In this document: one piece after another, positions 321 to 33,487 of the stretch
Layout of the letters: each line of letters opens with the position of its first letter
Position numbering within the stretch: position 1 is the first letter of the stretch
Source: a virus
Lineage: Duplodnaviria > Heunggongvirae > Uroviricota > Caudoviricetes
DNA length: 36,107 bases
Direction: 5' to 3' (one strand)
IMG/VR virus record: IMGVR_UViG_2630968500_000009
Notes under the pieces: generated by a model
What the model was told of the DNA's origin: nothing
The model's database searches: none
Seen by the model: the letters and a program-made list of their open reading frames with translations, nothing else
Position numbers and translations under genes: made by a program

Positions 321-443
321 TTATTTTCAACGCGTTTGAAGTTCTGGACGGTGCCGGAATAGAATCAAAAATACTTAAGTAGCGCGCAGGGATAAGAGGG
401 ATGGTCCCTTAAAGGGGAGAGCTAATTATCCGGAAGGATTCTG

Positions 444-1041: not shown

Positions 1042-2091
1042 GTGCGGGTATTACTTAGACCTGTTCTGGTGCCTGAGCTTGGGCTGGTGGTCCTTAAGCC
1101 GGGCCGTGAATCCATACAGATATTTCATAATCCTCGAGTGCTGGTGGAACCGGAACCAAAAAGCATGCGTAATCTGCCATCCGGAGTCGTTCCTGCCGTT
1201 CGCCAGCCGCTGGCGGAAGACAAAACATTGCTGCCGTTTTTTAGTAACGAACGGGTGATTCGTGCTGCTGGCGGCGTTGGCGCATTGTCCGACTGGCTAT
1301 TACGTCATGTTACATCCTGCCAGTGGCCTAATGGCGATTACCATCACACTGAAACAGTCATTCACCGTTATGGTACCGGCGCAATGGTGTTGTGCTGGCA
1401 CTGCGACAACCAACTGCGTGACCAGACATCGGAATCACTGGAGCTGCTTGCTCAACAAAATCTGACAGCATGGGTGATTGACGTCATCCGTCACGCAATA
1501 AGCGGTACGCAGGAGCGGGAATTATCTTTGGCTGAATTATCCTGGTGGGCGGTCTGCAATCAGGTGGTGGATGCACTACCTGAGGCTGTATCGCGTCGTT
1601 CGCTGGGATTACCAGCGGAAAAAATCTGCTCGGTGTACCGCGAAAGCGACATCGTACCGGGAGAGCAGACCGCCACCAGCATATTGAAACAACGCACAAA
1701 AAATCTTGCACCGTTGCCTTACGCCCACCAGCAACAAAAATCACCACAGGAAAAGACGGTGGTAAGCATCACCGTTGATCCAGAGTCTCCGGAATCTTTC
1801 ATGAAGCTGCCTAAACGTCGCCGCTGGGTTAAGGAGAAATACACACGTTGGGTTAAGACACAGCCGTGTGCTTGCTGCGGTATGCCAGCCGACGATCCGC
1901 ATCATCTGATTGGTCACGGGCAGGGCGGAATGGGAACAAAAGCACATGATCTCTTTGTGTTGCCTTTGTGCAGAAAGCATCACAACGAGCTGCATACGGA
2001 TACAGTGGCATTTGAAGATAAGTATGGCTCCCAACTGGAGCTGATATTTCGTTTTATCGATCGCGCGCTGGCAATTGGCGTACTGGCGTAA
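1042..2091 (+). CDS. ydfU: DUF968-family prophage protein with C-terminal HNH-like Cys/His motif (349 aa from GTG start)
   Basis: GTG start 6 nt after a strong GGAGGT SD; C-terminus has CACCG...DPHHLIGHG...CRKHHNELH resembling an HNH/zinc-finger nuclease motif; sits immediately upstream of Q. Confidence 0.6.
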   Translation: MRVLLRPVLVPELGLVVLKPGRESIQIFHNPRVLVEPEPKSMRNLPSGVVPAVRQPLAEDKTLLPFFSNERVIRAAGGVGALSDWLLRHVTSCQWPNGDYHHTETVIHRYGTGAMVLCWHCDNQLRDQTSESLELLAQQNLTAWVIDVIRHAISGTQERELSLAELSWWAVCNQVVDALPEAVSRRSLGLPAEKICSVYRESDIVPGEQTATSILKQRTKNLAPLPYAHQQQKSPQEKTVVSITVDPESPESFMKLPKRRRWVKEKYTRWVKTQPCACCGMPADDPHHLIGHGQGGMGTKAHDLFVLPLCRKHHNELHTDTVAFEDKYGSQLELIFRFIDRALAIGVLA

Positions 2092-25068: not shown

Positions 25069-28470
<3,402 letters not shown>

Positions 28471-28488: not shown

Positions 28489-28512
28489 GGCGTCAGAAAT
28501 GACGCCTTTTTT
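28489..28512 (+). terminator. Rho-independent terminator after J
   Basis: GGCGTC-AGAAAT-GACGCC followed by TTTTTT. Confidence 0.5.
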
Positions 28513-28536
28513 ATTGCAGAAAAGCGAGAGGTAATT

Positions 28537-29136
28537 ATGCGTAAACTTTATGCCGCCATTTTGTCCGCAGCCATTTGTCTGGCCGTATCCGGTGCGCCTG
28601 CATGGGCGTCTGAACATCAGTCCACGCTGAGCGCGGGGTATCTTCATGCCTCGACGAACGTTCCCGGCAGCGATGATCTGAACGGGATTAACGTGAAATA
28701 CCGTTATGAGTTTACGGACACACTGGGGCTGGTGACGTCATTCAGCTATGCAGGAGACAAGAATCGCCAGCTTACCCGTTACAGCGATACCCGCTGGCAT
28801 GAAGATTCCGTGCGTAACCGCTGGTTCAGCGTGATGGCGGGGCCGTCTGTGCGCGTGAATGAATGGTTCAGCGCGTATGCGATGGCGGGTATGGCTTACA
28901 GCCGTGTGTCGACTTTCTCCGGGGATTATCTCCGCGTAACTGACAACAAGGGGAAAACGCACGACGTGCTGACCGGAAGTGATGACGGTCGCCACAGCAA
29001 CACGTCTCTGGCGTGGGGAGCTGGCGTGCAGTTTAACCCGACCGAATCCGTGGCCATTGATGTCGCTTATGAAGGCTCCGGCAGTGGTGACTGGCGCACT
29101 GACGGGTTCATCGTGGGTGTTGGTTATAAATTCTGA
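28537..29136 (+). CDS. lom: Lom-family outer-membrane beta-barrel protein (Ail/PagC family), 199 aa
   Basis: Signal peptide ([13 protein letters not shown]) and C-terminal ...[20 protein letters not shown] as in lambda Lom; N-terminal half differs from the lambda Lom I recall. Confidence 0.8.
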
Positions 29137-29163
29137 TTAGCCAGGTAACACAGTGTTATGACA

Positions 29164-29189
29164 GCCCGCCGGTTCAGGCGGGCTTTTTT
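29164..29189 (+). terminator. Rho-independent terminator after lom
   Basis: GCCCGCC-GGTTCA-GGCGGGC followed by TTTTTT. Confidence 0.5.
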
Positions 29190-29200
29190 GTGGGGTGAAT

Positions 29201-32200
29201 ATGGCAGTAAAAATTTCAGGTGTACTGAAAGACGGCACAGGAAAACCGGTACAGAACTGCACAATCCAGCTGAAAGCAAAACGTAACAGTACCACGGTGG
29301 TGGTGAACACGCTGGCATCTGAAAATCCGGATGAAGCCGGGCGTTACAGTATGGACGTTGAGTACGGTCAGTACAGCGTTATTCTGTTGGTGGAAGGATT
29401 CCCGCCGTCACATGCCGGGACCATCACAGTGTATGAAGATTCCCGACCCGGTACGCTGAATGATTTTCTCGGTGCCATGACGGAGGATGATGCCCGTCCG
29501 GAGGCACTGCGCCGTTTTGAGCTGATGGTGGAAGAGGTGGCGCGTAACGCGTCCGTGGTGGCACAGAACACGGCAGCCGCGAAGAAGTCAGCCAGTGATG
29601 CCAGCACATCAGCCCGTGAGGCGGCAACCCATGCGACTGATGCTGCAGGCTCAGCACGCGCAGCCAGCACGTCAGCCGGACAGGCCGCGTCGTCGGCTCA
29701 GTCAGCGACTTCCAGCGCAGGAACGGCATCAACAAAGGCCACTGAAGCATCAAAAAGTGCTGCCGCTGCAGAGTCCTCAAAAAGCGCGGCAGCTACCAGT
29801 GCCAGTGCCGCGAAAACGTCAGAAACGAATGCTGCAGCGTCACAACAATCAGCAGCCACTTCTGCATCCACCGCGACTACGAAAGCGTCAGAAGCTGCCA
29901 CCTCAGCCCGGGATGCGGCGGCTTCAAAAGAGGCGGCAAAATCATCAGAAACGAACGCATCCTCGAGCGCCAGTAGCGCAGCTTCCTCGGCAACAGCGGC
30001 AGGAAATTCCGCGAAGGCGGCAAAAACGTCAGAGACGAACGCCAGGTCTTCTGAAACGGCAGCGGGACAGAGCGCCTCGGCTGCGGCAGGCTCAAAAACA
30101 GCGGCTGCGTCGTCTGCCAGTGCAGCGTCAACAAGTGCCGGGCAGGCCTCAGCCAGTGCCACCGCCGCCGGAAAATCGGCAGAAAGCGCCGCATCGTCTG
30201 CTTCAACAGCCACAACGAAGGCTGGCGAAGCCACTGAACAGGCCAGCGCAGCAGCGAGGTCTGCTTCCGCAGCGAAGACATCCGAAACGAACGCGAAAGC
30301 GTCGGAAACCAGCGCAGAATCCTCAAAAACGGCTGCCGCATCGTCAGCCAGTTCGGCGTCGTCATCGGCATCATCTGCGTCTGCTTCAAAAGATGAGGCG
30401 ACCAGACAGGCGTCAGCAGCGAAGGGTAGCGCCACGACGGCATCCACGAAGGCGACAGAGGCAGCTGGCAGTGCGACGGCAGCAGCTCAGAGCAAAAGTA
30501 CGGCGGAATCTGCAGCAACGCGCGCTGAGACAGCGGCAAAACGGGCAGAGGATATTGCATCCGCCGTGGCGCTTGAGGATGCGAGCACGACGAAAAAGGG
30601 GATAGTACAGCTCAGCAGTGCGACCAACAGCACTTCCGAGTCACTGGCGGCAACGCCAAAAGCCGTTAAGGCCGCGTATGACCTGGCTAACGGGAAATAC
30701 ACCGCACAGGATGCAACGACAGCACAGAAAGGGATAATCCAGCTAAGCAGTGCGACCAACAGCACGTCTGAAACGCTGGCGGCAACGCCAAAGGCAGTAA
30801 AAGCAGCCAATGACAATGCTGAGAAACGTCTGCAGAAAGATCAGAACGGTGCGGATATCCCTGGCAAAGACACCTTTACGAAAAATATTGGTGCCTGCCG
30901 TGCCTTCGGTGGGTCAGTAAGCACAACAACAGGAAACTGGACGACTGCACAGTTTATCGAGTGGCTGGATTCTCAGGGAGCATTTAACCATCCATACTGG
31001 ATGTGCAAGGGTTCCTGGTCTTATGGCAATAATAAAATCATTACTGATACTGGCTGCGGTAATATTCATCTCGCCGGAGCTGTCATTGAAGTAATGGGGA
31101 TAAAGTCAGCGATGACGATCCGCATTACCACACCGACCACCTCCACTGGTGGTGGAACAACTAACGCCCAGTTTACCTATATTAATCACGGAACAGATTA
31201 TTCACCTGGCTGGCGAAGGGACTATAACTCCAGAAATAAGCCAACGGCATCAGAGATCGGGGCGTTACCGTCAGGTGGAACAGCAGTATCATCAGTTAAT
31301 CTGTCTTCAAAAGGTCGGGTAACCGCGCTGACAGACAATACGCAGGGGGCAACAGGTCTTGAGTTATACGAGGTGTATAACAACGGATATCCAACAGCGT
31401 ATGGAAATATCATTCACCTGAAAGGGATGACAGCCGTTGGCGAAGGTGAGTTACTCATCGGCTGGAGTGGTACAAGCGGTGCTCATGCTCCGGCATTTAT
31501 TCGTTCACGACGGGATACGACCGACGCAAACTGGTCGCCGTGGGCGCAGCTTTACACCTCGGCTCATCCTCCTGCAGAGTTTTATCCAGTCGGTGCACCA
31601 ATCCCGTGGCCATCAGATACCGTTCCGTCTGGTTATGCCCTGATGCAGGGGCAGACTTTTGACAAATCTGCTTACCCGAAACTTGCAGCCGCTTATCCGT
31701 CAGGCGTGATCCCTGATATGCGTGGCTGGACGATTAAGGGCAAGCCCGCCAGTGATCGAGCCGTATTGTCTCAGGAACAGGACGGCATTAAATCACACAC
31801 CCACAGCGCCAGCGTATCCAGTACGGATTTGGGGACGAAAACCACATCGTCGTTTGATTACGGCACTAAATCCACGAATAACACTGGTGCGCATACCCAT
31901 AGTGTTAGCGGTACGGCTGCTTCAGCCGGTGCACATACCCATTCGATGACATTTGTTTCAGGTGGTTCCAGTGGTGCTCCGGGAAGTGGATCACCTGATT
32001 ACTCTAAATACAGTGTTAACACTTCTTCTGCAGGCGCTCATACGCACTCTGTATCGGGTACTGCTGCAAGCGCAGGTGCACACGCACATACTGTCGGTAT
32101 TGGTGCTCATACGCACTCCGTTGCGATTGGTTCACATGGACATACCATCACCGTTAACGCTGCTGGTAACGCGGAAAACACCGTCAAAAACATCGCATTT

Positions 32201-32224
32201 AACTATATTGTGAGGCTTGCATAA
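29201..32224 (+). CDS. stf: Side tail fibre protein Stf (about 1007 aa from ATG 29201)
   Basis: [26 protein letters not shown]... N-terminus as in lambda Stf; long Ala/Ser/Thr-rich shaft; C-terminal HxH repeats (GAHTHSVSG...). Confidence 0.85.
29530..30610 (+). repeat. Degenerate tandem repeats encoding the Ala/Ser/Thr-rich Stf shaft
   Basis: Recurrent units such as AAKTSETNA / [16 protein letters not shown] at roughly 100-130 bp periodicity; low-complexity composition. Confidence 0.5.
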
Positions 32225-32799
32225 TGGCATTCAGAATGAGTGAACAACCACGGACCATAAAAATTTATAATCTGCTGGCCGGAACTAATGAATTTATTGG
32301 TGAAGGTGACGCATATATTCCGCCTCATACAGGTCTGCCAGCAAACAGTATCGATATTGCACCGCCAGATATTCCGGCAGGCTTCGTGGCTGTTTTCAAC
32401 AGTGATGAGGCATCGTGGCATCTCGTTGAAGATCATCGGGGTAAAACGGTTTATGACGTGGCTTCCGGCGACGCGTTATTTATTTCTGAACTCGGTCCGT
32501 TACCGGAAAATGTTACCTGGTTATCGCCGGGAGGGGAATATCAGAAGTGGAACGGCACAGCCTGGGTGAAGGATACGGAAGCAGAAAAACTGTTCCGGAT
32601 CCGGGAGGCGGAAGAAACAAAAAACAGCCTGATGCAGGTAGCCAGTGAGCATATTGCGCCGCTTCAGGATGCTGCAGATCTGGAAATTGCAACGGAGGAA
32701 GAAATCTCGTTGCTGGAAGCATGGAAAAAGTATCGGGTATTGCTGAACCGTGTTGATACGTCAACTGCACAGGATATTGAATGGCCAGCACTGCCGTAG
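32224..32799 (+). CDS. tfa: Tail fibre assembly chaperone Tfa (191 aa)
   Basis: Start overlaps stf stop (ATAATGG); sequence resembles lambda/K-12 Tfa proteins. Confidence 0.85.
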
Positions 32800-32896: not shown

Positions 32897-33487
32897 TTAT
32901 ATGTCAGGTGTCTGAAGTTTTGCTTTGGCTCTTAAAATGGTTTGCCGCGAGGTTTTGAATTCCCGGGCAATGGCACTTATACTTACACCTGACTTAATTC
33001 GTTCGAATACCACCTGTTTCTGTTCTTCATTTAACACAGGTGGTCGACCAAAACGTTTCCCTGCGCCCCGGGCTCTTACTATCCCGGAATGAGTGCGTTC
33101 AAGTAAAAGGTCTCGTTCAAATTCAGCGACTGCTGAAATTACTTGCATCATCATTTTTCCTGTTGGACTGGTCAGGTCAATGCCCCCCAATGCTAAGCAA
33201 TGCACTCTGATACCTGTTTCGGTCAGTTGTTCCACTGTTTTCCTGATATCCATTGCATTACAACCAAGGCGATCCAGTTTTGTCACAATCAATTGATCAC
33301 CACATTTCAGGCGAGCAAGCAACCGGTTAAAACCAGGACGCTCACTGGTTGCTGCTGAGCCGCTAATGTGTTCTTCGATTATTTGCTGAGGTTTGATTTT
33401 AAAACCTGCACTTTCGATTTCCCGGCGTTGATTTTCGGTGGTCTGATCCAGCGTTGATATCCGACAGTAAGCAAAAATTCGAGACAT
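32897..33487 (-). CDS. pinQ: Serine recombinase, resolvase/invertase family (196 aa)
   Basis: N-terminal catalytic motif (YCRISTLDQ with the active-site Ser) and C-terminal HTH; sits beside tfa as pinQ does in Qin-type prophages. Confidence 0.75.

Follow-up and report, generated by a model that had tools for sequence, protein, structure and literature searches.

A heptad-repeat shaft and two PF03406 units in a lambdoid prophage side tail fibre, with natural length variants at short in-register repeats

The closest described systems to the fibre analyzed here come from EHEC prophages, Ur-lambda, phage Mu, and the K-12 Rac and Qin-like prophages. The EHEC proteins EPclA-D carry a PF08400 N-terminal domain followed by an Ala/Ser heptad region, and their domains have been named PfN, PCoil, Col and Pf2, the last of which is PF03406 (Ghosh et al. 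2012, PMC3368898). PCoil was established by experiment as a trimerizing alpha-helical rod: SEC-MALLS found PfN-PCoil fragments to be trimeric, CD found them to be alpha-helical and to have a Tm of about 49 °C, and electron microscopy gives about 14-16 nm for 116 aa, which fits the helical rise (PMC3368898). The heptad follows the pattern A-x-x-A/S-x-x-S, the absence of a Leu/Ile/Val core was called unusual for coiled coils, and the PCoils of different prophages differ in length by multiples of seven residues (PMC3368898). The side tail fibre (Stf) of Ur-lambda has been modelled as a trimer whose proximal coiled coil spans residues 102-393 (PMC12617516). The Mu fibres S and S' (PDB 5YVQ, 9KI1, 8JU3) attach to the baseplate of a contractile tail, possess neither a PF08400 domain nor a long heptad rod, and have their distal part swapped by Gin inversion.

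The DNA analyzed here (the window, 36,107 nt) is a lambdoid (Qin-site) E. coli prophage carrying J, lom, stf, tfa and pinQ (Table 1), with stf located after J and lom and before tfa, as in Ur-lambda. The stf product comprises 1007 aa from the ATG at 29201, which is the RefSeq start and reads MAVKISG as in lambda, or 1009 aa from a GTG at 29195 (ORF 29195-32224, +); residue numbers follow the GTG numbering. E. coli G5 has an annotated 'phage tail protein' with the same sequence (100% identity), and RefSeq annotates an identical locus with the same gene order, tfa following stf. Related sequence is present in 5,087 of 5,426 complete E. coli genomes, which together contain roughly 15,000 stf copies. 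The stf region analyzed below is very probably the proximal shaft of a lambdoid prophage side tail fibre of the StfR/StfQ type. The solved structure of the Ur-lambda Stf collar, which is almost identical, aligns to residues 3-96 (PDB 9E7M/9MGH, E = 1.3e-51), and the likeness to Ur-lambda Stf extends to the heptad consensus, its flanking anchors, a PF03406 unit after the rod and a tip of the T4 gp37 type. In the protein studied here the tip carries His-x-His repeats and includes the Collar domain PF07484 (Pfam), and the adjoining tfa gene suggests that it depends on Tfa. The segment between PF03406 and the tip, however, is of the Mu S' type here and of the lambda type in Ur-lambda Stf: the variable part of Mu S' aligns to Stf residues 541-697, and this distal shaft module is the second stretch of the match to PDB 8JU3 (E = 3.9e-85 for the whole protein). 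Over stf nt 1-1667, the DNA is 95% identical to that encoding StfR in the Rac prophage of E. coli K-12, and StfR/StfQ-type fibres contain the same 346-aa heptad tract (aa 112-457) and have the same neighbours, tfa and then the pin invertase; K-12 StfR differs in that PF03406 is present only once and the distal half is another, longer one (1120 aa).

Table 1. Position of stf, its neighbours, and the domains, repeats and shadow ORFs located in it. Residues are those of Stf in the GTG numbering.
Feature	Position (nt)	Strand	Residues	Basis or remark
J	25072-28470			ORF list
lom	28537-29136			ORF list
stf, side tail fibre gene	29201-32224	+		ORF list; PF08400, two PF03406 and PF07484 by Pfam
Collar/attachment domain PF08400 (phage_tail_N)	29201-29602	+	3-136	Pfam, E = 1.4e-71
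Heptad shaft ('PCoil')	29534-30571	+	114-459	Autocorrelation, heptad table, Viterbi phase tracking
28-nt in-register repeats (29931-29958 and 30015-30042)	29931-30042	+		Family D3; 89% identical, 84 nt apart
14-nt repeats (30188-30201 and 30335-30348)	30188-30348	+		Family D8; 147 nt apart
DNA direct repeat arm 1 (107 nt)	30576-30682	+		Repeat finder, family D1
Phage_fiber_2 (PF03406) copy 1	30584-30706	+	464-504	Pfam, E = 5.9e-37, two stretches
DNA direct repeat arm 2 (107 nt)	30708-30814	+		Repeat finder, family D1
Phage_fiber_2 (PF03406) copy 2	30716-30838	+	508-548	Pfam, second stretch; 44 aa after copy 1
Distal shaft module	30815-31285	+	541-697	Homologous to variable part of phage Mu S'
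Receptor-binding tip, T4 gp37 type	31580-32221	+	796-1009	PDB 2XGF, E = 4.9e-86
tfa, tail fibre assembly chaperone	32224-32799	+		Pfam Caudo_TAP, E = 9.8e-43
Serine invertase	32897-33487	-		3' of tfa
Shadow ORF, 336 aa, +2 frame of shaft	29595-30605	+		Not a gene
Shadow ORF, 249 aa, antisense to shaft	29698-30447	-		Not a gene
Shadow ORF, antisense	29877-30560	-		Not a gene
Shadow ORF, antisense	30487-30816	-		Not a gene

The first-pass annotation of this DNA had described an Ala/Ser/Thr-rich shaft with recurring TSETNA-type units, and this description is borne out, with Ala, Ser and Thr making up 70-80% of residues about 120-460 and with four occurrences of K(T/S)SETNA, 42, 28 and 84 aa apart. 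The shaft consists of 346 residues, or 49 heptads, with the consensus (S/T)-A-A-(A/S)-(T/S)-S-A, and lies directly after the collar domain. Identity autocorrelation of the protein (aa 105-462, 500 shuffles) yielded z = 8-11 at every multiple of 7, with all other lags at or below expectation, and a phase-tracking Viterbi scan returned a single tract (aa 114-459) with zero register breaks. Within the heptad, position 3 is Ala in 47 of 49 instances, position 6 is Ser in 37 of 49 and position 7 is Ala in 34 of 49. A higher-order repeat was considered and rejected, since the autocorrelation is about equal at 7, 14 and up to 56 residues and reveals no super-period. In the DNA, lags of 21, 63, 84 and 147 nt rose above codon shuffles (z = 5-6), and short repeats within the shaft mostly lie some multiple of 21 nt apart (126, 84, 252, 315, 231, 147, 168, 294, 420, 462, 399 and 336 nt). 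Tandem Repeats Finder, applied to positions 28500-32500 with a minimum score of 30, detected no DNA tandem array, the longest exact direct repeat within 29530-30830 spans 20 nt, and the shaft repeat copies reported by the repeat finder are 66-93% identical over 14-39 nt. The degenerate tandem repeats proposed in the first pass thus hold for the protein, in which periodicity is strong (7 residues, z about 10), and only weakly for the DNA, in which it is weaker (21 nt, z about 5-6). Instead of a DNA tandem array, the shaft is a run of heptads predicted to form a coiled coil.

Many phage fibre shafts are beta-structured. A shaft of that kind, such as a triple beta-helix or beta-spiral in which the 7-residue period is a beta repeat, or else a disordered Ala/Ser/Thr linker, is very unlikely here given that the period is strictly 7 across 346 residues, that AlphaFold2 predicts continuous helices, that the homologous PfN-PCoil is alpha-helical and trimeric with a length in electron microscopy that fits the helical rise (PMC3368898) and that the Ur-lambda Stf model is a coiled coil (PMC12617516), even though Ala and Ser alone occupy the heptad core and Leu, Ile and Val are almost absent from it, a composition as unusual for coiled coils here as it was judged to be in PCoil (PMC3368898). 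The AlphaFold2 monomer model, which is of moderate confidence (mean pLDDT 66), contains helices over model residues 6-180 and 194-365, with pLDDT of about 72-86 across most of both helices and of about 60-66 beside the break between them; the fold-back at model residues 181-193 is probably an artefact. From this model and by analogy with the relatives above, we infer that the shaft is a parallel trimeric alpha-helical coiled coil. Three chains would wind into a rod about 51 nm long in which small residues (Ala, Ser) fill the conserved positions of the 49 heptads, and this rod would extend from the collar domain, the clamp of the fibre on the tail, and keep the receptor-binding tip at a distance. 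The lambda Stf shaft has 241 residues against 346 here, being 105 aa, or exactly 15 heptads, shorter between the same anchors, and the EPclA-D PCoil measures only 88-116 aa; the collagen (Gly-X-Y) domain of EPclA-D is absent from the Stf studied here.

The end of the shaft had been annotated as two imperfect 88-bp direct repeats. Their cores, at 30595-30682 and 30727-30814, were recovered to within 1 nt, but the true repeat unit is 132 nt (44 aa) and not 88: the two arms are 78% identical over 107 nt, lie 132 nt apart and share a 20-nt exact match, AGCAGTGCGACCAACAGCAC, at 30614-30633 in arm 1 and 30746-30765 in arm 2. In the protein, these arms correspond to two copies of PF03406 (125.4 bits against a cut-off of 22, with the best stretch covering profile positions 1-41 of 42), whose KGIxQL motifs are 44 aa apart; lambda has one copy. 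Stf residues 492-570 match the Mu tail fibre protein S (PDB 5YVQ), and Mu S and S' have in common with this region both the PF03406 unit and the 'NGADIPxK' stretch that comes after it. The AlphaFold2 monomer has pLDDT of about 45-58 over the PF03406 segment, and the Mu cryo-EM paper leaves that segment undescribed. The two 44-residue repeats may form a conserved joint between the rod and exchangeable distal modules.

The first pass had further proposed that such repeats could vary fibre length between strains, and length polymorphism was indeed evident among close homologues (n = 118, representatives of 90% identity clusters), so that both outcomes named there as refuting the proposal, a lack of periodicity and a lack of length differences, were contradicted. 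The distance between shared anchors, the first of which is EEVARNA, is 340 aa in 78 of 118 and ranges from 291 to 343 aa in the remainder, and the KGIxQL motif of PF03406 is found once in 17 proteins, twice in 102 and three times in 1, although two of the 17 single-motif proteins (P0001 and P0072) are near full length and their second motif may simply be mutated. Strict quantization of these indels in heptads can be rejected, as 35 of the 118 differ by a non-multiple of 7 (-3 in 12, +3 in 5, -1 in 6, and others). Quantization in heptads is thus a tendency and not a rule, and some relatives of this Stf differ in this respect from EPclA-D; among more diverse PF08400 proteins, the tract may be missing altogether or reach up to 346 aa, and its register is mostly unbroken. 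Several length differences can be traced to base level, and their junctions fall on direct repeats, as the first-pass annotation had anticipated in naming these repeats as sites of recombination and slippage. In one locus (L004), the first 1,700 nt of stf differ from the window in nothing but the loss of 132 nt, and are otherwise 100% identical; the junction of this deletion is the 20-nt exact match (30614 and 30746). Another locus (L005) contains a 132-nt insertion that adds a third PF03406 copy. Within the shaft, one relative (L002) lacks exactly 84 nt (28 aa, 4 heptads) bounded by the repeats at 29931 and 30015, and another (L003) lacks 147 nt (49 aa, 7 heptads) bounded by the repeats at 30188 and 30335.

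Several of these variants come from draft contigs, that of L005 being only 3.3 kb long, so that repeats collapsed or expanded during assembly might be suspected of creating the length differences. The probability of this is nonetheless close to nil, because repeats that are only 78% identical and 132 nt long are easily resolved by short reads, and because complete genomes present both one PF03406 copy (K-12 StfR) and three (strain 884), with 9 of 33 stf spans in a spread sample of complete genomes being 131-132 nt shorter and 2 of 33 being 132 nt longer. In-frame variants may arise because all heptads resemble one another and because the DNA of the two PF03406 units is 78% identical: if in-register copies misalign during recombination or slip, the product would stay in frame and the fibre would be shortened or lengthened. 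Considering that exact identity reaches at most 20 nt, unequal homologous recombination and replication slippage are equally likely mechanisms, and the several such prophages that are usual in an E. coli genome may offer extra recombination partners. Low DNA identity between the repeats, again with at most 20 nt exact, implies that length-change events are probably rare. A contingency locus, in which slippage at high frequency would change the length of the fibre, or turn it on and off, among the members of a clonal population, would accord with copy-number variants between otherwise identical loci and with the 3-aa indels seen in several clusters in a short Ser/Ala-rich stretch near aa 386-400. 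Such a locus is nevertheless highly improbable here: perfect or near-perfect head-to-tail DNA repeats are lacking, as are tandem arrays, shaft copies and exact repeats are as divergent and as short as described above, the observed variants are all intact ORFs, and they separate strains, with no heterogeneity seen within a strain.

In a spread sample of E. coli genome matches, the ends of DNA homology cluster at particular points of stf (in stf nt coordinates), namely at 351-382, where the heptads start, at 845-915, at 1316-1334, and at 1475-1488 and 1620-1626, which are the ends of PF03406 copies 1 and 2, respectively. Proteins of 956 to 1181 aa combine this one 346-aa tract with differing distal halves, and conserved stretches may double as crossover points at which different distal halves are joined on. 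The clustering of joints at PF03406 ends is relevant to the design of chimeric lambda fibres for phage-based delivery (PMC11338833); details of the fusion point are absent from the main text of the lambda base-editing paper. An invertible fibre switch operated by the neighbouring invertase, of the Mu G, P1 C or e14 P type, was also considered and rejected. With up to 3 mismatches to the 26-nt Mu site allowed, no gix-like site was found in the window. The AAACCNNGGTTT core is matched there only as often as chance predicts, and in other places, and the gap between tfa and the invertase is only 97 nt, with no second stf/tfa set. In this, the locus departs from that of Mu.

Long ORFs overlap the shaft in other frames, and the first-pass annotation had attributed them to biased composition, an attribution with which the four ORFs identified here agree. 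Across the shaft, 67% of the bases at stf codon position 2 are C and 1% are T, which leaves the +2 frame and two antisense frames free of stop codons. At least one of the three longest (227-336 aa) could still be proposed as a real gene on account of its length and of the lambda reference record, which annotates an equivalent antisense ORF, 'orf206b', but this proposal deserves almost no credence when the codon position 2 bias alone suffices to remove stops from these frames and the translations are low-complexity strings, rich in Arg/Gln/Pro or in Ala/Asp/Phe. Moreover, substitutions relative to four close homologues fall mainly at stf codon position 3 (28 of 37, 45 of 66, 21 of 24 and 28 of 44), and hence strike the first and second codon positions of the overlapping frames. 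These ORFs are shadows of composition, and annotators should disregard them.

The observation of a repetitive shaft is correct and ordinary, its domains and most of its behaviour being already known: a 2012 paper described the heptad PCoil rod as trimeric and helical, with lengths that vary in sevens (PMC3368898), the architecture of the lambda fibre followed in 2025 (PMC12617516), Pfam curates PF03406 as a repeat, and stf is an annotated tail fibre gene. The periodicity, the domain identities, and the natural length variants with their DNA junctions were observed directly, and the base-level examples of natural length variants arising at short in-register repeats make a small practical addition. 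Fibre length may affect adsorption, and one could imagine the shaft as an adjustable ruler, with unequal recombination in register among heptads and PF03406 units tuning the reach of the fibre; we regard this as doubtful. Were it true, each heptad would contribute about 1 nm, and each 44-residue unit a further increment, and selection would match reach to the depth of the O-antigen or capsule layer of the host; the frequent ±1 and ±3 indels would then indicate that a coiled coil with an Ala/Ser core is unusually tolerant of register breaks.

The shaft encoded by the side tail fibre gene stf is a run of heptads, probably a coiled coil, rather than a tandem array of DNA repeats. Alanine, serine and threonine make up 70-80% of Stf residues between about positions 120 and 460 (residues are counted from the GTG at 29195), and the identity autocorrelation of residues 105-462 peaks at each multiple of seven residues (z = 8-11 against 500 shuffles) while staying at or below expectation at other lags. 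A Viterbi scan for heptads, with seven phases and phase jumps allowed, returned a single tract of 346 residues with zero jumps. The consensus of the shaft is (S/T)-A-A-(A/S)-(T/S)-S-A, with Ala at position 3 in 47/49, Ser at position 6 in 37/49 and Ala at position 7 in 34/49. The TSETNA-type units noticed in the first-pass annotation do recur, as four copies of K(T/S)SETNA spaced by 42, 28 and 84 residues, all in register. The period is weaker in the DNA, where the signal at lags of 21, 63, 84 and 147 nt rises above that of codon shuffles (z = 5-6); short direct repeats within the shaft mostly lie a multiple of 21 nt apart, and the longest exact direct repeat of the whole repeat region is 20 nt. 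Since Tandem Repeats Finder reported no array in the stf region, the description of the shaft as long degenerate tandem repeats holds for protein heptads and not for a DNA array. That the shaft is a slippage-driven contingency locus is likewise improbable, given that near-perfect tandem DNA repeats are absent.

Pfam and solved-structure searches identify Stf as a mosaic fibre. Residues 3-96 match the solved Ur-lambda Stf collar (9E7M/9MGH, E = 1.3e-51), and both units following the rod are Phage_fiber_2 repeats (PF03406, E = 5.9e-37, two stretches), also present in Mu tail fibre protein S (5YVQ). The mosaic distal half spans window positions 30815-32221 (+); repeated GAHTHS-type His-x-His motifs of the tip appear as short DNA repeats at 31886-32121. 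The heptad rod is an already described domain: Ghosh et al. (2012; PMC3368898) studied prophage fibres that, like the window Stf, carry PF08400 followed by a low-complexity stretch, which they termed PCoil. Their PfN-PCoil fragments were trimeric and, by CD, alpha-helical with a reversible transition near 49 °C; electron microscopy put the length of a 116-residue PCoil at about 14-16 nm, the heptad was given as Ala-x-x-Ala/Ser-x-x-Ser, and PCoil length differences as multiples of seven (PMC3368898). In the 2025 paper on the Ur-lambda structure each side fibre is described as an Stf trimer with collar (1-91), linker (92-101), proximal coiled coil (102-393), hinge (394-422) and then a distal part (PMC12617516). 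At 1.48 Å each, the 346 residues would form a rod of about 51 nm. An AlphaFold2 monomer model of residues 95-560 contains helices at model residues 6-180 and 194-365, with pLDDT of about 72-86 over most of their length and about 60-66 beside the break between them; the low-confidence fold-back at this break is probably an artefact of modelling a monomer, and the PF03406 part has no confident prediction. A beta-structured or disordered shaft is unlikely, since the heptad pattern is strict, the model is helical, and published CD and trimer data speak against one.

Features of the stf region, domains of Stf and clusters of homology ends
Feature	Window position	Strand	Stf position	Length	Basis or remark
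J	25072-28470				ORF list + Pfam
lom	28537-29136				Ail_Lom; ORF list + Pfam
stf	29195-32224	+			ORF list + Pfam
tfa	32224-32799				Caudo_TAP; ORF list + Pfam
Serine invertase	32897-33487	-			Resolvase + HTH_7; ORF list + Pfam
PF08400 collar domain			aa 3-136		Pfam
Heptad rod	29534-30571		aa 114-459	346 residues	Viterbi scan
Two PF03406 units			aa 464-548		Pfam
Direct repeat arm 1	30576-30682			107 nt	repeat finder
Direct repeat arm 2	30708-30814			107 nt	repeat finder
Stretch resembling variable part of Mu S'			aa 541-697		8JU3
Receptor-binding tip, T4 gp37 type			aa 796-1009		2XGF, E = 4.9e-86
Homology-end cluster			nt 351-382		start of heptads
Homology-end clusters			nt 845-915 and 1316-1334		within / near end of rod
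Homology-end cluster			nt 1475-1488		end of first PF03406 unit
Homology-end cluster			nt 1620-1626		end of second PF03406 unit

The window is the tail end of a lambdoid E. coli prophage. Its stf DNA is 100% identical to one locus of E. coli strain G5, a Qin-site prophage whose annotated neighbours are gpJ, Ail/Lom, "phage tail protein", tfaQ, pinQ, ydfK, ynfT and a truncated ydfJ. The stf ORF opens with GTG at 29195 and RefSeq begins the gene 6 nt downstream, at ATG 29201; the real start is probably 29201, because the RefSeq protein, lambda Stf and the solved collar all begin there with MAVKISG. Numbering from the GTG (1009 aa) therefore equals lambda Stf numbering plus 2. The invertase lies 97 nt beyond tfa and is of the Pin type (pinQ in the identical G5 locus). 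Neither a gix-like crossover site nor a second stf/tfa set was found anywhere in the window, which ruled out an invertase-driven fibre switch, and the invertase looks like an orphan left from one. Codons for FTKNIG at 30875-30892 (+) align with FIQNLG of Mu S, a stretch that in Mu holds the Gin crossover site. The window DNA has diverged here and is not a gix site; it may be what remains of a former inversion junction.

The shaft also contains ORFs of 336, 249, 227 and 109 aa in other frames, which the first-pass annotation had attributed to biased composition. This attribution is borne out: codon position 2 across the shaft is 67% C and 1% T, a bias that leaves the +2 frame with no stop codons and two antisense frames with two each. 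In four close homologues, substitutions fall on stf codon position 3 in 28/37, 45/66, 21/24 and 28/44 cases; the stf frame alone is under protein-level constraint. Minus-strand orf206b, annotated within the stf shaft in the lambda record (NC_001416, 1248-1868), is likewise a shadow ORF that composition creates.

Fibre length was predicted to vary between strains, and such variation is seen in close homologues, complete genomes and lambda. The distance from EEVARNA to a second anchor was compared in 118 close homologues, each representing a 90% identity cluster, and is 340 aa in 78 of them. Differences that are multiples of seven are -49 (n=1), -28 (n=2) and -14 (n=2); the remaining 35/118 differ by -34, -24 (2), -12, -6 (3), -3 (12), -2 (2), -1 (6), +1 (2), +2 or +3 (5), with -3 and +3 the commonest. 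These -3 and +3 changes lie in a Ser/Ala-rich stretch, at window positions of about 30340-30390 for the commonest case. Heptad quantisation of length changes is therefore a tendency, not a rule, and the Ala/Ser rod seems able to accommodate breaks in register, an addition to the published statement on "multiples of seven". In lambda Stf, reconstructed because the lambda record is frameshifted, the tract runs without a break for 241 residues, and the stretch from EEVARNA to KGIxQL is exactly 105 residues (15 heptads) shorter than in the window protein. In a set of 150 diverse PF08400 proteins the tract may be missing or reach as many as 346 residues, mostly with no break.

The terminal units vary as well. 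The two direct repeats had been put at about 88 bp; their conserved cores were placed within 1 nt, and the true unit is 132 nt (44 aa), the arms being 78% identical at an offset of 132 nt with exact runs of 20 and 17 nt. Of the close homologues, 17 have a single PF03406 motif KGIxQL, 102 have two and 1 has three. Complete-genome spans over both units, from a spread sample in which K-12 and strain 884 alone were read directly, comprised 22 of window length, 9 that were 131-132 nt shorter and 2 that were 132 nt longer. K-12 StfR combines the same 346-residue tract with one PF03406 copy; in strain 884 there are three, of which the first two encode identical protein. The presence of variants in complete genomes excludes assembly artefacts as the source of the length differences. 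The K-12 stfR fibre genes sit in a decayed prophage: in Rac (MC4100 locus, 1347-2942) an IS5-like element splits lom upstream of stfR, and the tape-measure gene is truncated.

DNA of four variant loci was aligned with the window. The first 1,700 nt of stf in L004 are 100% identical except for a 132-nt deletion, whose junction falls in the 20-nt exact match AGCAGTGCGACCAACAGCAC found at 30614 and 30746, and L005 has gained a third unit through an insertion of 132 nt. The other two have shorter shafts: 84 nt (4 heptads) are missing from L002 between 28-nt repeats at 29931 and 30015 (89% identical), and 147 nt (7 heptads) are missing from L003, where the flanking repeats are at 30188 and 30335. 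The repeats had been proposed as sites of slippage and recombination, and these junctions are what misaligned recombination, or slippage, between direct repeats in register would leave behind. Such events are probably rare, because the exact matches are so short. With length varying and a strong period of seven, the original observation is confirmed and its interpretation supported, as corrected here for the unit, the nature of the shaft and the quantisation.

What the window shows is a side tail fibre shaft of the textbook lambdoid type; its domains are published, and DNA homologous to stf occurs in 5,087/5,426 complete E. coli genomes. Where a complete genome has any stf match, the median number of matching places is 2 and the maximum 15-16, and a few hundred places are plasmid-borne; fibre genes thus have many partners to recombine with. 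In spread samples of the genome matches, homology to the window stf ends in clusters (table), and the 346-residue tract is shared by proteins 956 to 1181 residues long that differ in their distal halves. Hence, as part of the long-known mosaic evolution of tail fibres, the conserved rod and the PF03406 units are also sites of crossover at which receptor-binding ends are exchanged.
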